From IMG/VR virus record IMGVR_UViG_2651869785_000017: DNA of 4,859 bases; one strand, written 5' to 3'. Below the pieces are notes generated by a model, which had not been told where the DNA came from, did not search any database, and saw nothing but the letters and a program-made list of their open reading frames with translations. The stretch is from a virus (taxonomy: Duplodnaviria; Heunggongvirae; Uroviricota; Caudoviricetes). Shown here piece after piece: positions 139 to 4,724 of this stretch (positions within the stretch are counted from its first letter, which is position 1; every line of letters starts with the position of its first letter). A program made the translations under genes and the position numbers.

Positions 139-349
139 GGAGAGTGGCGCTATGTGCCATTGCATGGTGCCGGGTGCCTCCCGGTGAGTTCAGTATCAGC
201 ACCTGAACCCGCACAGAAAGGATAAGGGTCGGTGACAAAACACCAGTTGCTGATTGCCCCTCCGCACAGGGGGATTCACCATGCCAGTTTCTTTTAACAA
301 ACTCCCCGCAAACCAGACAACAGTCAACCGCCTGAATTGTGAGACATTT

Positions 350-373
350 AAAAAAAAGCCCGCAAAAGCGAGC
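350..373 (-). terminator. Rho-independent terminator downstream of the tRNA cluster
   Basis: Minus-strand transcript reads GCUCGC-UUUU-GCGGGC (6-bp stem with one G-U wobble) followed by U8 (plus-strand A run 350-357). It lies 16 nt past the 3' end of the last tRNA. Confidence 0.55.
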
Positions 374-388
374 CAGGGAAAATAAGTG

Positions 389-465
389 TGGCGCGTTCTA
401 CTGTATTCGAACCAGTGACCGATTGCTTAGAAGGCAATTGCTCTGTCCGGCTGAGCTAACAACGC
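389..465 (-). tRNA. tRNA-Arg (anticodon UCU), argO-like, slightly imperfect
   Basis: Hand-folded cloverleaf from the reverse complement: acceptor GCGTTGT/AGAACGC (6 of 7 pairs, G6:G67 mismatch), D stem GCTC/GAGC with GG in the D loop, anticodon stem ATTGC/GCAAT, loop CTTCTAA (anticodon TCT), T arm ACTGG-TTCGAAT-ACAGT (G53:A61 mismatch), discriminator G, CCA encoded. Not run through tRNAscan-SE. Confidence 0.65.
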
Positions 466-481
466 AGGATACAGATAATGA

Positions 482-555
482 ACCGCCTTCGGGGACCCGA
501 ACTCCGCGCAACCAGCTTCGAAGGCTGGCGCTCTTTCCTGATGAGCTAATGGCGG
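482..555 (-). tRNA. tRNA-Arg-like (anticodon UCG as folded by hand), argN-like; possibly degenerate
   Basis: Reverse complement folds as acceptor CCGCCAT/AAGGCGG (6 of 7, A6:A67 mismatch), D stem GCTC/GAGC with loop ATCAGGAAA, anticodon stem CCAGC/GCTGG (perfect), loop CTTCGAA (anticodon TCG), T arm CGGAG-TTCGGGT-CCCCG (one mismatch). The 3' end is followed by TCA, not an encoded CCA. It sits 7 nt after the tRNA-Ile gene. Confidence 0.5.
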
Positions 556-562
556 TATGTAA

Positions 563-638
563 TGGTGGCCCTTGCTGGATTTGAACCAGCGACCTGGCGA
601 TTATGAGTCGCTCGCTCTCACCACTGAGCTAAAGGGCC
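563..638 (-). tRNA. tRNA-Ile (anticodon CAU, lysidine type; ileX/ileZ-like), formally Met/Ile ambiguous
   Basis: Reverse complement GGCCCTTTAGCTCAGTGGTGAGAGCGAGCGACTCATAATCGCCAGGTCGCTGGTTCAAATCCAGCAAGGGCCACCA: acceptor 7 of 7, D stem GCTC/GAGC, anticodon loop CTCATAA, T arm GCTGG-TTCAAAT-CCAGC, CCA encoded. Closely resembles my recollection of E. coli ileX (tRNA-Ile2) and not elongator tRNA-Met. Confidence 0.85.
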
Positions 639-666
639 GAGCCAAAAAATAATAATCAGATGAAAA

Positions 667-1380
667 TCAATAATCAAGCCCTTGCCTGGATACATATCTG
701 TCTGGCGGGAAGCCATAATAGCGGTGAAATACAGAAATAAAGTAGGACCTGCTTGAATAACCGCATTTTTCTGCTATAGCCTGTCCATATCCATGCCGGG
801 AACATAACATATTTACAGCAACACGCATCCGCTCTTCCAGCAACAAGCGACTGAACATGCCCCCTTCATTTTTCAGTTTTGTCTTTAACAAACTCTCACT
901 CATATGCAACTGTAGAGCAATCGCACCAAGCGTCCAGCTTGCTGATATATCTGTCTGAATTATCGCCCTGACTTTGGCACTTATGCTGGATAAACATCCA
1001 CTTAAAAACAATGACATCCGTTCATCTGTTTCAAACAGAGACAGGCAGGCCATCATAAGAAACATATCCGTGGCCTCTCCGGAAAATCCCTGGCTGGTAA
1101 TTAAAGCCGCAGCCAACGCAGGATTGTTGGGTTCCAGCAACAGGTAAAGCGGAATGTCAGTCAGACGAGTCCTCGTCAGCTTATGCTGACTTTCCAGATA
1201 TTGACTTACGACGGATTCGCTTATATCGACAATTTTAACTTTGCCATAATGCATAAGGAAAAGCTCCCTGATGCATTTGGTGGCCAGAACAACTGAGCCT
1301 GGCTTAAGTGACAACGTATCCTTTTCAAGAAAAATATTAATTGGGGAGCAAACCATGATAACTGAACAGACAACAGCCAT
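667..1380 (-). CDS. AraC/XylS-family transcriptional regulator (237 aa as drawn)
   Basis: The C-terminal ~100 aa (approx. 667-970) carry the AraC-type double HTH signature (WTLGAIALQLHMSESLLKTKLK...RMRVAVNMLCSRHGYGQAIAEKCGYSSRSYFISVFHRYYGFPPDRY). The N-terminal part is short for the family. Start is ambiguous: ATG at 1380 has no clear SD, whereas the in-frame ATG at 1254 (MHYGKV..., 195 aa) has a GGGAG SD 9 nt upstream. Confidence 0.85.
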   Translation of the reverse strand: MAVVCSVIMVCSPINIFLEKDTLSLKPGSVVLATKCIRELFLMHYGKVKIVDISESVVSQYLESQHKLTRTRLTDIPLYLLLEPNNPALAAALITSQGFSGEATDMFLMMACLSLFETDERMSLFLSGCLSSISAKVRAIIQTDISASWTLGAIALQLHMSESLLKTKLKNEGGMFSRLLLEERMRVAVNMLCSRHGYGQAIAEKCGYSSRSYFISVFHRYYGFPPDRYVSRQGLDY

Positions 1381-1415
1381 TATAATTTTACTTTCATTAG
1401 CAATTGGTTAGCTCA

Positions 1416-1446
1416 ATTATAGCCCCAAAAGGTAAATTATCATCAA
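1416..1446 (-). promoter_or_regulatory. Candidate sigma70 promoter for the AraC-like gene
   Basis: Minus-strand TTGATG (-35, complement of 1441-1446) and TATAAT (-10, complement of 1416-1421) with a 19-bp spacer, which is longer than optimal. A C7/G7 homopolymer (1475-1481) lies just upstream. Confidence 0.3.
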
Positions 1447-1502
1447 CACATAAGCAAAGGACTGACAGGTGTCGCCCCCCCACCAGCCGCCCATTCACCA
1501 CA

Positions 1503-1528
1503 AATAAAAAGCCTTCAGGACTGAAGGC
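1503..1528 (-). terminator. Rho-independent terminator after the small winged-helix ORF
   Basis: Hairpin GCCTTCAG..CTGAAGGC (1511-1528), overlapping the ORF stop codon, followed on the minus strand by UUUUUAUU (plus-strand 1503-1510). Confidence 0.5.
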
Positions 1529-1712
1529 GTCTGTAACAACCGCACTGATAGTCTGCCAGACCCGCCATAACAAGCTGGGTCAGTATTAACTGGCAGCGTT
1601 CGCGTGAAAGGTAAGTATTCTGCGCAATCTCCCCGACTGTCGCCGGTTCGGTAACGCTTAATTCATCAAACACAACTCTGGCGGTTTCTGTCATATCCTG
1701 CTGTTTCAGCAT
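1515..1712 (-). CDS. Small hypothetical protein (65 aa), possible winged-helix DNA-binding protein (PapI/FaeA-like pattern)
   Basis: Intact ORF with its own downstream terminator and a weak AAGGG SD-like element about 9 nt upstream of the ATG. The segment GEIAQNTYLSRERCQLILTQLVMAGL resembles the recognition-helix region of small wHTH regulators. Composition matches the phage backbone, not the AT-rich cassette. Homology is from memory only. Confidence 0.45.
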   Translation of the reverse strand: MLKQQDMTETARVVFDELSVTEPATVGEIAQNTYLSRERCQLILTQLVMAGLADYQCGCYRRLQS

Positions 1713-1836
1713 GTCTTTTTACCCTTTCCGGTTAACGTGACATACCAATAACTCTTGTCTAAAAAGCCAGCAAGATAAAAAGCCAGTATTCACGACCACC
1801 AGCGTGTTTACTGTACTGCACCAAGTTTACAGGTAC

Positions 1837-1861
1837 AAAAAACCCGCTCAGTGGCGGGTTT
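1837..1861 (-). terminator. Terminator-like hairpin in the divergent intergenic region (stronger on the minus strand)
   Basis: Stem CCCGC (1843-1847) / GCGGG (1854-1858) with loop TCAGTG, flanked by A6 on the left and TTT on the right. The minus-strand transcript gets hairpin plus U6; the plus-strand transcript gets hairpin plus UUUAAGUUGUG. Confidence 0.45.
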
Positions 1862-1931
1862 AAGTTGTGTGGCGAAGTAACCACTCTTAACACAATACAA
1901 TACTTTTTGCGTACGCGTTAGTGTTTTGATA

Positions 1932-1966
1932 GAATTTTCAGCCACATAAAAATTCATTCTTATAAT
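1932..1966 (+). promoter_or_regulatory. Candidate promoter/operator region for the cassette
   Basis: Consensus TATAAT at 1961-1966, 12 bp upstream of the gene-1 ATG, but with no good -35 and no strong SD. A 7-bp inverted repeat GAATTTT (1932-1938) / AAAATTC (1949-1955) with a 10-bp spacer sits where a -35 would be, suggesting an operator or activator-dependent promoter. Confidence 0.25.
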
Positions 1967-1978
1967 TCGGGATATATA

Positions 1979-3154
1979 ATGGATATAACTTGTTTAGAAT
2001 GTGGCAATGTTCTTGACGACCCAACTGTAGCTTGCGATAAATGCGGTGCCACGCCTCATGTTGTAGTGCTGGGCAAACAATCGTACTTTCCTATTGGTGC
2101 TGTAACAGCAAATCTTGAAAAAAATGATTCAAGAGCATTTGATTATCGATTAGGTGAAGTTTGGGATCTAAAAAATGAAGTCACATCTGAATTCATAACC
2201 AGAATTGAGAAAAAATTTAGCCGAAAAAACAAATTTCATAACTTCCTAGACTCAGATCACAACCCTTCATCCATTCCTACGATCCTAAAAAAATACATTA
2301 ATAAAAATAATGAATTCATTGATTTATCTAGAGCTATAATAGAGAAGCTTAAACATAATGCTAATAACGAATCGAGAGTTGCCCAACTTCAGGGGGGGAG
2401 CGTTGTTTTCATCCACTATAAGTCTACCGAACCAGAGGATTTGGGGAAACTTCTAATCGTAATGGTTGATAAACAAAGCGCCTATGACTTTGATTCGGAT
2501 AAGTTGACCCCAACAAGATTAAATCCAATTAATACCGATGCCTTACGGCAGGCTGCGATGTTCGATTTAACTTTATTCGAAGCCAGTTATCCAGAAAACA
2601 AGGGTGACTCATATGTACATTTCTTGCAAGGTAAATCTAAAAGCGATTTTTTCAAAGACTCATTAGGTTGCCGACATGATTCGGACAATAAAAGAAGCAT
2701 TCAGCAATTATTCAGTGCTATAGATATTTTTGCTAGTAAAAACTCACTCGGTCGTGTACTGCGTGATACTATTGACAATGAAGTTAAATCCTTACTGGAA
2801 AAAAAATCAAAAGATAAACACGGAAATAAGTCCGTTAAGATAGAGGATATTTCAAAAATAATTGACTCATGCCTGACTGATTCACACAAATGTAAGGGAA
2901 CGTTTGTCGATTTTGTTAATCTTAATGGTTTCCAGATTGACCCTCAATTTGAACCAACTCCTAAAGCAGCTGAAAGCGCGCTTACAATTGAAGTGGCAGA
3001 TAACGACAATAATTTTAAGTTGAAAATAATGCGTGGAGCTATTGGAGACGAAAAGTCAAATAAGCCTGTAATTCTCACTGACAACAAATGCGAAATTGTG
3101 ATAAAATTGAGTCAGGCAAATTATGATGAACTCAAAAGATATAGAGACAGCTAA
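1979..3154 (+). CDS. Zn-ribbon + NdpA/YejK-like (NA37 family) nucleoid-associated-protein homolog, 391 aa; cassette gene 1
   Basis: Hand-verified translation. Residues 5-22 form a CxxC-x10-CxxC zinc ribbon (CLECGNVLDDPTVACDKC). Residues ~138-228 (GGSVVFIHYKS...LLIVMVDKQ...DLTLFEASYPENKGDSYVHFLQGKSKSDFFKDSLG) align by eye with the conserved core of E. coli YejK (GGFVLFCHY...[23 protein letters not shown]). Strongly AT-rich and K/N/I-rich, unlike the flanking DNA. Confidence 0.8.
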   Translation: MDITCLECGNVLDDPTVACDKCGATPHVVVLGKQSYFPIGAVTANLEKNDSRAFDYRLGEVWDLKNEVTSEFITRIEKKFSRKNKFHNFLDSDHNPSSIPTILKKYINKNNEFIDLSRAIIEKLKHNANNESRVAQLQGGSVVFIHYKSTEPEDLGKLLIVMVDKQSAYDFDSDKLTPTRLNPINTDALRQAAMFDLTLFEASYPENKGDSYVHFLQGKSKSDFFKDSLGCRHDSDNKRSIQQLFSAIDIFASKNSLGRVLRDTIDNEVKSLLEKKSKDKHGNKSVKIEDISKIIDSCLTDSHKCKGTFVDFVNLNGFQIDPQFEPTPKAAESALTIEVADNDNNFKLKIMRGAIGDEKSNKPVILTDNKCEIVIKLSQANYDELKRYRDS

Positions 3155-3156
3155 TA

Positions 3157-4371
3157 ATGACAATTGCTGATGACTTATCAAGATTAGCGCAGATTATTAA
3201 CGGAGCCTCAAGCAGAGTTGAGGGCTACTACACTGTCATAAGTCTTGAAGAAAGCATTGTTATTGTAAATAGTTCTGAAATAATTAGACTGTTACAATCT
3301 ATAGGTTATAAAAAGGCAACAACCTGCATCGAAAATAATGAAATTTGGCTAGATCGCCAAGCTTCATCTTGGGATGACGCTATAATTTATGAGAATGTTG
3401 AGTCTTTTTGGTCTAGAGTAAACACCCAAAACGCTCTTCCGAAAAATTATATCATCGGAACGCCGTTAATACTCCCTACTTCTAAGAATGAAAGCATCGA
3501 AAAAATCCATATTTTCTTTATGTGGAAAGATATCCTTTCATTAATTGCTGATCATCATAACAGTGACTGCTCTGTCTTATTTTTCACCAATGAAGACAAA
3601 AGTTATACAGTCGAACTCACGCATTTTTTACAATATAGCGAGATTAATCGCTTATCGAACTCGTCTCTTAAATATGAAATTATAAAGGAGCTTCTCGACA
3701 CAATAAAAATCAATGATTTACACAAAAGCGAGCGCAAGCTCGTTATACGCTCAGCCATAAACGAAGTATTTAAAGCAAATGGTACGTTCAATTTCTTTGA
3801 CTTGCTTAACTCTACTGAACTCGTCAGGAAAAAATATGATGAACTATATGAGATTTACACAAAGAGGTTTTCTGTAAATAAAATTCTTAACGAACTCGAT
3901 GAGAAAAATCTTGAGTTCACGAGTAAAATTAACGAATTCATATCATCTAATCAGACAAAAGCATTGACTATTCCCGGTGCATTAATAGCTGCTGGTGGCT
4001 TAGTGAAGGCTAATGAAACAACCGAAGCAATATTGATTATCGCAGGACTTTGGATGATAAAAAAAGTCAATTACATTTCTATTGAGATATTCAATGAAAC
4101 ATTCGACAACTTACGTTCTCGAGTGGAGTCCGCTTTCGATAAGTATTTAAAGTTTGAAGAAAATAAAGAAATCAAAGATAATGCAGATAGTATTAAGAGT
4201 AGCATTACAGGTTTGATTGATAAAGCTAAAAAAAGGATGAGAACTGTTAAATATCTCGCATCAGCCATGTTTTATGGAGGCCTTATTTACGTTGGATATA
4301 AACAGTTCCCAGTCTTTTTTGAAAAATCGGCAGTAAATCTATTTTATTTTTTATGCCATACTATAAGCTAA
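3157..4371 (+). CDS. Hypothetical membrane-anchored protein, 404 aa; cassette gene 2
   Basis: ATG lies 2 nt after the gene-1 stop (TAATAATG), so likely translationally coupled. A ~270-aa N-terminal soluble region has no recognisable catalytic motif (no Walker A, HExxH or obvious nuclease motif). Hydrophobic segments at approx. 3964-4020 (ALTIPGALIAAGGLV), 4030-4070 (AILIIAGLWMI) and 4255-4300 (YLASAMFYGGLIYVGY). Same AT-rich composition as gene 1. Confidence 0.75.
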   Translation: MTIADDLSRLAQIINGASSRVEGYYTVISLEESIVIVNSSEIIRLLQSIGYKKATTCIENNEIWLDRQASSWDDAIIYENVESFWSRVNTQNALPKNYIIGTPLILPTSKNESIEKIHIFFMWKDILSLIADHHNSDCSVLFFTNEDKSYTVELTHFLQYSEINRLSNSSLKYEIIKELLDTIKINDLHKSERKLVIRSAINEVFKANGTFNFFDLLNSTELVRKKYDELYEIYTKRFSVNKILNELDEKNLEFTSKINEFISSNQTKALTIPGALIAAGGLVKANETTEAILIIAGLWMIKKVNYISIEIFNETFDNLRSRVESAFDKYLKFEENKEIKDNADSIKSSITGLIDKAKKRMRTVKYLASAMFYGGLIYVGYKQFPVFFEKSAVNLFYFLCHTIS

Positions 4372-4707
4372 CATTGCTAAACAGCCGTCAACAAACCCCA
4401 TTGCAGTTTGCAGTTCCTTCCTAATTGTGCCATCAGAGCATTTTCTCTTCTTCGCAATAGTACGTAATGAGATACCGATAACAAAGTGGGCGATGATGAG
4501 CTCATATTCCTCTGGTTTATACCTTCTCAACCGAGCCACACAACTGTCTATCATGATGCCTTCGTCATCATCACACTGAATCCGTGACTTTTTGCCATGA
4601 GGTAAAAGTCCCTTGAAACCAGCCGCTATCGGCTGCCAGTCCACTCCGCTATTGTCTGAAGCAGCCCAAGCTCCCCAACGATCCATTACTTCATACATAT
4701 CACGCAT
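4351..4707 (-). CDS. Phage antitermination protein Q (Phage_antitermQ family, QuuD-like), 118 aa
   Basis: Translation MRDMYEVMDRWGAWAASDNSGVDWQPIAAGFKGLLPHGKKSRIQCDDDEG...CSDGTIRKEL matches my recollection of the DLP12 QuuD/Q-family pattern (MRD...ERWGAWAA...IAAGFKGL...SR.QC.DDD...CSDG). ATG at 4707 has a GGAG SD 7 nt upstream; the ORF track's extra 5 codons start at an in-frame TTG at 4722. Confidence 0.85.
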   Translation of the reverse strand: MRDMYEVMDRWGAWAASDNSGVDWQPIAAGFKGLLPHGKKSRIQCDDDEGIMIDSCVARLRRYKPEEYELIIAHFVIGISLRTIAKKRKCSDGTIRKELQTAMGFVDGCLAMLAYSMA

Positions 4708-4724
4708 CAACTTTCTCCACAAAA

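Follow-up and report, generated by a model that had tools for sequence, protein, structure and literature searches.

We analysed a stretch of 4,859 nucleotides (the window) from the Caudoviricetes record IMGVR_UViG_2651869785_000017 of IMG/VR. The window spans the late-regulatory region of an stx-free lambdoid prophage, and it carries three tRNA genes (the trio), an AraC-like regulator gene, an AT-rich two-gene cassette and the antiterminator gene Q. A first-pass annotation of the window had proposed that the trio, which reads codons that are rare in the host, decodes exactly the rare codons of the cassette and may support translation of both the cassette and the AraC-like gene. We find that the trio is a known tRNA operon, that the cassette is a published anti-phage system, and that the two are probably incidental neighbours whose codon match reflects base composition.

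Identity and anatomy of the tRNA operon

ARAGORN found exactly three tRNA genes in the window, all on the minus strand and within 389-638, and all three scored above the gathering score of 29 bits for the Rfam family RF00005 (Table 1). The anticodons CAU, UCG and UCU are those given in the first-pass annotation. A CAU anticodon together with the acceptor-stem pairs C4-G69 and C5-G68 is what TilS recognises, and the CAU tRNA of the window, which is identical to K-12 ileX at 68 of 76 positions, keeps both pairs. It is identical at 76 of 76 positions to the gene annotated as ileZ in phage 933W, and RefSeq names the same sequence tRNA-Ile. On these sequence features it is a tRNA of the Ile2 type, in which host TilS would convert C34 to lysidine so that the tRNA would read AUA.

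Table 1. Features of the window
Feature	Position	Strand	Basis or remark
tRNA-Ile2 (CAU), ileZ orthologue	563..638	-	ARAGORN 'Met'(cat); Rfam 72.5 bits
tRNA-Arg (UCG), argN orthologue	479..556	-	ARAGORN 480-556 (tcg); Rfam 43.4 bits
tRNA-Arg (UCU), argO orthologue	389..465	-	ARAGORN (tct); Rfam 53.4 bits
Promoter-like site of tRNA operon (TTGATT, 17 nt, TATTAT)	649..677	-	Consensus scan
Intrinsic-terminator-like hairpin and run of T	349..374 (hairpin 374-357)	-	Scan; closes tRNA operon
DS-1 gene 1, YejK/NA37-like nucleoid-associated anti-phage protein	1979..3154	+	'Gene 1' of the first-pass annotation
DS-1 gene 2, anti-phage protein without Pfam domain	3157..4371	+	
Conserved 140 bp upstream of DS-1	1839..1978	.	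Travels with the cassette
Antiterminator Q	4351..4722	-	Pfam PF06530, E=3.2e-47; RefSeq annotation
AraC/YdeO-like regulator	667..1380	-	Pfam HTH_AraC, HTH_18; directly upstream of tRNAs
65-amino-acid winged-helix gene	1712-1515	-	
DUF968 gene fragment	4859-4725	-	First in phage reading order
STnc100 RNA match	313-108	-	Rfam

The promoter-like site ahead of the trio overlaps the stop codon of the AraC-like gene, and the promoter pT of 933W is annotated at the same distance from ileZ. The -10 hexamer TATTAT, which ends 10 nt ahead of the tRNA 5' end, was kept in all nine loci compared, while the -35 hexamer occurs in two forms according to whether the upstream gene encodes an AraC-like regulator or a DNA methyltransferase. 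The hairpin that closes the operon was kept in eight of nine loci, and its equivalent in 933W is annotated as a terminator upstream of stx. Alignment of the trio with the pT-ileZ-argN-argO region of 933W gave a mean column identity of 90%, and the order Ile(CAU), Arg(UCG), Arg(UCU) recurs in 933W and in eight other loci, on the strand of Q and the late genes. The first-pass annotation had noted a likeness to the ileZ-argN-argO cluster downstream of Q in Stx phages. Judged by sequence and arrangement, this is more than a resemblance: the trio is the ileZ-argN-argO operon of this prophage, orthologous to that of 933W. The gene names and pT were taken from the GenBank annotation of 933W (NC_000924.1), in which the operon has flanking terminators, and from papers mentioning tRNA structure; a literature search on ileZ/argN/argO, and on the 933W tRNA genes with rare codons, yielded nothing relevant.

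The two operons differ in several respects. In 933W, stxAB lies between the terminator and STnc100, while the window has no stx genes and only 43 bp separate these elements. DS-1 and two regulator genes stand between the trio and Q in the window, the -35 hexamer is TTGCAG in 933W and TTGATT here, and argN and argO of the window carry extra mismatches, argN also ending in UCA. The operon is common to Stx and non-Stx lambdoid prophages of E. coli and is already known. When counted as present at 80% or more of its 266 bp, the trio was found in 2578 of 5426 complete E. coli genomes, at up to 13 places per genome. K-12 ileX and ileY (Ile2, CAU) and argU (Arg, UCU) decode the same codons as the corresponding tRNAs of the window, which unlike them are prophage-borne extra copies. 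The UCG tRNA has no known K-12 counterpart.

The cassette is the DS-1 anti-phage system

The product of gene 1 matched Pfam PF04245 (E=1.2e-23) and NCBIfam NF053868, DS1_1_antiphage (451 bits against a curated equivalog cut-off of 330), and that of gene 2 matched NF053869, DS1_2 (375 bits against a cut-off of 315). The cassette DNA is 100% identical to loci annotated with WP_000355468.1 (gene 1) and WP_000150292.1 (gene 2), the proteins that the DefensePredictor supplement (PMC13092281) gives as DS-1. On sequence identity, the AT-rich cassette is the published DS-1 system; we found no difference between the proteins, and only the flanking prophage context varies among genomes. PADLOC, whose 2023 models predate DS-1, reported nothing for the cassette.

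By textbook accounts, E. coli MG1655 has neither a UCG arginine tRNA nor the phage trio. It was in this strain that the DefensePredictor authors placed each system, under its native promoter on a low-copy plasmid, and defence was reported for the validated systems (PMC13092281). If so, the published assay comes close to the comparison of hosts with and without the tRNA cluster that the first-pass annotation had suggested. By the authors' report, taken together with the textbook tRNA content of MG1655, DS-1 defends without the trio, a result on defence and not on protein yield.

Within the 140-bp block ahead of gene 1 are a promoter-like site (1926-1953, +) and, at the edge of the unit, a hairpin (1843-1858); in all cassette-only records the shared block starts at 1839. 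At the other end, the genes for gene 2 and Q are convergent, and their 3' ends overlap by 21 bp (4351-4371). With DS-1 lying convergent to Q, the late promoter on which Q acts must lie beyond the cassette. E. coli, Salmonella, Raoultella and Enterobacter all show the succession of Q, opposite-strand DS-1 and then usually holin and lysozyme genes, including where protein identity is down to 54%. Before the NA37 domain (residues 64-376), the first 27 residues of the gene 1 product (1979-2060) include CLEC and CDKC, both of the form Cys-x-x-Cys, which suggests a small zinc-ribbon-like extension outside the Pfam match.

Codon usage of the cassette follows its base composition

The hand-read codons of the first-pass annotation were exact over the first 85 codons of gene 1, where arginine is encoded by AGA, CGA, AGA and CGA and isoleucine by ATA, ATT, ATA and ATT; the tRNAs lie 1341 bp from this gene, close to the 1.3 kb given. 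Over its full length gene 1 has 15 arginine codons (AGA 8, CGA 3, CGT 3, CGG 1) and ATA at 9 of 28 isoleucines. The corresponding figures for gene 2 are 14 arginine codons (AGA 5, AGG 3, CGA 1, CGC 4, CGT 1) and ATA at 15 of 47 isoleucines, and the AraC-like gene uses AGG for 5 of 13 arginines and ATA for 5 of 15 isoleucines. For comparison we used 135 annotated K-12 genes from four regions, among them the AT-rich rfb, waa and hsd/mcr clusters, and an expectation computed from third-position frequencies at four-fold sites (Table 2).

Table 2. Use of codons read by the trio (G+C at third codon positions is given as GC3)
Gene set	ATA/Ile	AGA/Arg	CGA/Arg	ATA+AGA+CGA per 1000 codons
DS-1 cassette (G+C 0.35, GC3 0.32)	0.32	0.45	0.14	51.7
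K-12 core genes (GC3 >=0.50)	0.04	0.02	0.05	5.9
K-12 genes with G+C <=0.37 (12 genes)	0.33	0.35	0.13	52.2
Expected from cassette base composition	0.35	0.34	0.16	

ATA and AGA were strongly enriched in the cassette over the K-12 core genes (Fisher p ~1e-14). In both the cassette and the AraC-like gene, cognate codons are far commoner than in the host core, as the first-pass annotation had supposed. Against K-12 genes of matched G+C, no difference was seen for ATA (p=1), AGA (p=0.30) or CGA (p=1). Over the full genes, therefore, there is no enrichment relative to other AT-rich genes, an outcome that the first-pass annotation had itself named as telling against its proposal. Three and eight of 25 AT-rich K-12 genes reach or exceed the AGA use of the two cassette genes.

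It is the core genes that depart from expectation, since they use ATA, AGA and CGA far below what their own composition predicts; in the core sample, AGG, AGA, CGA and ATA rank as the four least used codons. Because the trio decodes these four, any unadapted AT-rich gene will seem matched to it, and the rare-codon content of the cassette follows from its G+C of 35%. The match is also less than exact. Of the 95 codons in the cassette that core genes seldom use, the trio covers 41-45, and CTA, TCA, ACA and CCT are left uncovered. In stxA2 of 933W, where ATA encodes 15 of 20 isoleucines and AGA 6 of 24 arginines, the cognate codons reach 72 per 1000, above the value for DS-1.

The trio and the cassette are distributed independently

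Of 5426 E. coli genomes, 106 carry the cassette (1839 to at least 4350), each copy at no less than 99.8% identity, and the trio adjoins it in only 20 of 107 cassette-bearing records. Seven records keep the small winged-helix gene without the AraC-like gene and the tRNAs, and in the remainder the cassette leads straight into holin and lysozyme genes, in a stretch of 16.5 kb that is free of tRNA genes; tRNA genes were likewise absent from three cassette-only loci of E. coli. At least five cassette-bearing chromosomes gave no other megablast match to positions 380-4350 of the window, so no trio is detectable in them. Conversely, O157:H7, strain 13081 and an Stx2k phage have the AraC-like gene and the trio but no cassette beside them.

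Outside E. coli, loci were found through protein homologues and the contigs encoding them; a scan of one genome per species with the gene 1 protein alone confirmed no relative. Homologues of gene 1 occur in Salmonella (96% identity), Raoultella (92%), Enterobacter (54%) and P. aeruginosa (38%), each followed by a second gene in the same arrangement. None of eight homologue loci of other genera had a tRNA gene within 8 kb. In four loci measured, the gene pair had a G+C of 0.34-0.38, with ATA at 0.29-0.50 of isoleucines and AGA at 0.31-0.46 of arginines, and in P. aeruginosa the flanks are 64% G+C. AT-rich homologues that lack nearby tRNA genes indicate that low G+C is a property of the family and no adaptation to adjacent tRNAs. 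The cassette and the trio assort independently.

The DS-1-like pair of P. aeruginosa (8001-10422 of its loci; 38% G+C) lies beside genes characteristic of a filamentous, Pf-like prophage (Zot, integrase). DS-1 is thus carried by very different kinds of prophage.

The arginine tRNA genes of this lineage

The three tRNA genes are not in equal condition. ileZ is intact in the window and identical in nine of ten loci compared. In argO, the changes C61A and C67G create uncompensated G53.A61 and G6.G67 mismatches, the first of them at G53-C61, a nearly universal tRNA pair. cmscan gave argO 53.4 bits with two non-standard pairs, against 68.1 bits in 933W and 70.1 in the Stx2k phage, with none in either, and its cloverleaf energy is -16.7 against -22.0 kcal/mol. 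argN, with uncompensated A6.A67 and A52.C62 mismatches, scored 43.4 bits and shows two non-standard pairs; its 933W counterpart has none and scored 54.8 bits. At its 3' end argN of the window encodes UCA in place of CCA, and ARAGORN and RefSeq accordingly set the 5' end at 556, one base further upstream. Among the loci compared, only copies of the window type end in UCA. Both exact alleles are in the minority: no more than 93 of 2379 records carry that of argO, and no more than 132 of 1233 that of argN.

These changes may indicate that the two arginine tRNA genes are decaying relics in this lineage and that only ileZ still functions. We regard this as a serious possibility, if one a little short of an even chance. 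It is consistent with the mismatches, with scores 11-15 bits below those of 933W, with the minority status of both alleles and with the near-invariance of ileZ. In the argO-like gene of strain 13081, moreover, the T-stem carries a compensated swap of C50-G64 to G50-C64, along with one T-loop and one D-loop change, which indicates that the tRNA fold is under selection in other lineages. A published study of stx2i also reports copies of the trio annotated as pseudo-tRNA. On the other side, all three tRNAs pass Rfam and ARAGORN despite the mismatches, RefSeq annotates them as tRNAs, and the CCA-adding enzyme could repair the UCA end. The two mismatches of argN are also found in O157:H7 and in a commensal strain and may be tolerated; the idea that they reflect decay of this lineage alone was for that reason partly rejected. 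Both arginine tRNAs of this lineage look impaired from their predicted folds, and such changes do not fit strong selection to serve the neighbouring cassette.

Prophage context

E. coli O104:H4 and its relatives match the whole window at 99.2-99.6%, and ten genomes are 100% identical over positions 380-4350. The direction of phage transcription, set by Q, is that of the minus strand, and in a near-identical genome locus the order is Q, DS-1, the small winged-helix gene, the AraC-like gene, the tRNAs, STnc100, esterase, holin, lysozyme and terminase. The trio thus sits between Q and the late (esterase and lysis) genes, with DS-1 and the two regulator genes intervening after Q. This prophage carries no stx genes.

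STnc100 is full-length here (143 bits) and begins 43 bp (314-356) past the tRNA terminator; in 933W it scores 208 bits and lies directly downstream of stxB, beside AsxR, for which the window gave no match. With stxAB missing between terminator and STnc100, the prophage resembles an stx-less form of the 933W layout.

The winged-helix and AraC/YdeO-like genes (667-1712, minus strand) form a module that adjoins the tRNAs in several cassette-free prophages, including that of O157:H7. The best NCBIfam match of the AraC-like gene was YdeO, at 108 bits, which is under the YdeO cut-off. The module resembles, without being identified with, the prophage-encoded PatE/PsrA/PsrB regulators of acid resistance and secretion (PMC10877973).

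A G+C-rich hairpin, CCCGC-TCAGTG-GCGGG, lies within 1839-1865, with a run of A on one side and of T on the other, and coincides exactly with the edge of the block that accompanies the cassette. Read on the minus strand, it looks like a strong terminator, which our scan overlooked; our guess is that A-T pairs extending the stem leave too few T. From its position and form, it could be a late-operon terminator or a two-way insulator.

Discussion

The trio is, with good probability, an incidental neighbour of the cassette, being a known operon whose codon match is compositional. It forms a small self-contained unit of promoter-like site, tRNA-Ile2, two tRNA-Arg and terminator, whose products would act in trans to add decoders for AUA, CGA/CGG and AGA/AGG, and it would be matched to gaps in the tRNA pool of the host and not to a particular neighbour. 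DS-1 would be a separate mobile module travelling with Q, and the adjacency in the window would mark a lineage that combined a Q and DS-1 module with a regulator and tRNA module. This reading draws on the observed orthology and anatomy of the operon, the codon statistics, the independent distribution and the arginine tRNA mismatches; expression from the promoter-like site, modification of the tRNAs and decoding by them are inferred. Given the distribution and the published MG1655 assays, any help that the trio lends to DS-1 translation would be general and not required.

Several points weigh against this reading. The cassette is the heaviest user of cognate codons in the window, at about nine times the core rate, and the promoter-like site could allow the trio to be expressed in the lysogen, when DS-1 is needed. 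The use of AGA exceeds that of K-12 genes matched on GC3 alone (0.45 against 0.22-0.24; nominal p=0.01-0.02), an apparent AGA-specific enrichment that we rejected, as it vanishes once overall G+C is the basis of matching (p=0.30). The comparison with K-12 drew on 135 sampled genes and not on the whole genome, the absence of the trio from some carrier genomes depends on the sensitivity of megablast, expression and charging of the trio are presumed, and the lack of the trio in MG1655 is textbook knowledge.

Among the rival readings, the classical view comes next after decay of the arginine tRNAs. In this view the main use of the trio is in lytic growth and toxin production, where it would boost translation of phage late genes and stx once the prophage is induced, and it would be irrelevant in the lysogen. 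We consider it possible, at a probability nearer one in three than one in two. In every locus examined the trio lies between Q and the late genes, stxA2 is rich in ATA and AGA, and in the matching prophage the late genes have ATA, AGA and AGG at frequencies near 0.09 each, where core genes have 0.04, 0.02 and 0.01. This late-gene enrichment is modest, however, at 4.5 ATA and 5.9 AGA per 1000, the present prophage lacks stx, and the separate promoter and flanking terminators suggest that expression may be independent of Q.

It is also conceivable, though we think it unlikely, that the trio is expressed from its own promoter in the uninduced lysogen and measurably raises the yield of AT-rich prophage cargo, including the DS-1 proteins and the AraC-like regulator. 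The intact ileZ would then be the most important copy, since ATA (24 codons in the cassette) is used more than any other cognate codon.

The stronger proposal, in which translation of the cassette and of the AraC-like gene depends on the trio and so keeps it beside them as a co-adapted pair, is very improbable. The cassette does exceed core genes in ATA, AGA and CGA (51.7 against 5.9 per 1000), the AraC-like gene is rich in AGG and ATA, and the trio lies 1.3 kb off with a promoter-like site of its own. Yet the codon use of the cassette equals that of G+C-matched K-12 genes and the compositional expectation, the two are adjacent in a minority of cassette records and some carrier chromosomes have no trio, homologues in four other genera show the same codon use with no tRNA gene nearby, and both arginine tRNAs here carry uncompensated mismatches. 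Defence by DS-1 was moreover reported in MG1655, a strain without the trio by textbook knowledge. The specific tie proposed in the first-pass annotation thus finds no support in codon use, adjacency or homologues. Least probable of all is that the tRNAs are spare copies that resist anticodon nucleases of the host or of competitors (such as cleavers of tRNA-Arg), for which the two arginine tRNAs among the three, the absence of a UCG isoacceptor from K-12 in textbook accounts and position 37 of the anticodon loop (G in 933W, A in other copies) are indirect hints, while codon supply is the simpler explanation of anticodons that fit the four rarest host codons.

Rare-codon helper plasmids carry argU, ileY or ileX, leuW and others. 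By supplying extra tRNAs for AGA/AGG and AUA, they improve the expression yield of AT-rich foreign genes in E. coli. The first-pass proposal applies the same idea to a natural setting, but the plasmids are engineered and multicopy, whereas the trio here is single-copy. For sequence analysis more widely, finding that the codons of a gene suit neighbouring phage tRNAs for ATA, AGA and CGA is uninformative unless the fit exceeds the expectation for AT-rich composition, because these are the rarest codons of the host.

As it stands, the locus is a known tRNA operon beside a published defence system. Were the first-pass proposal true, prophage tRNAs would have a share in the expression of foreign defence systems by lysogens, a modest but useful addition to phage-host biology. 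If the trio were expressed in the lysogen and raised the yield of its cargo, prophage tRNAs would aid the immunity and regulation of lysogens, and not only lytic growth and toxin yield.

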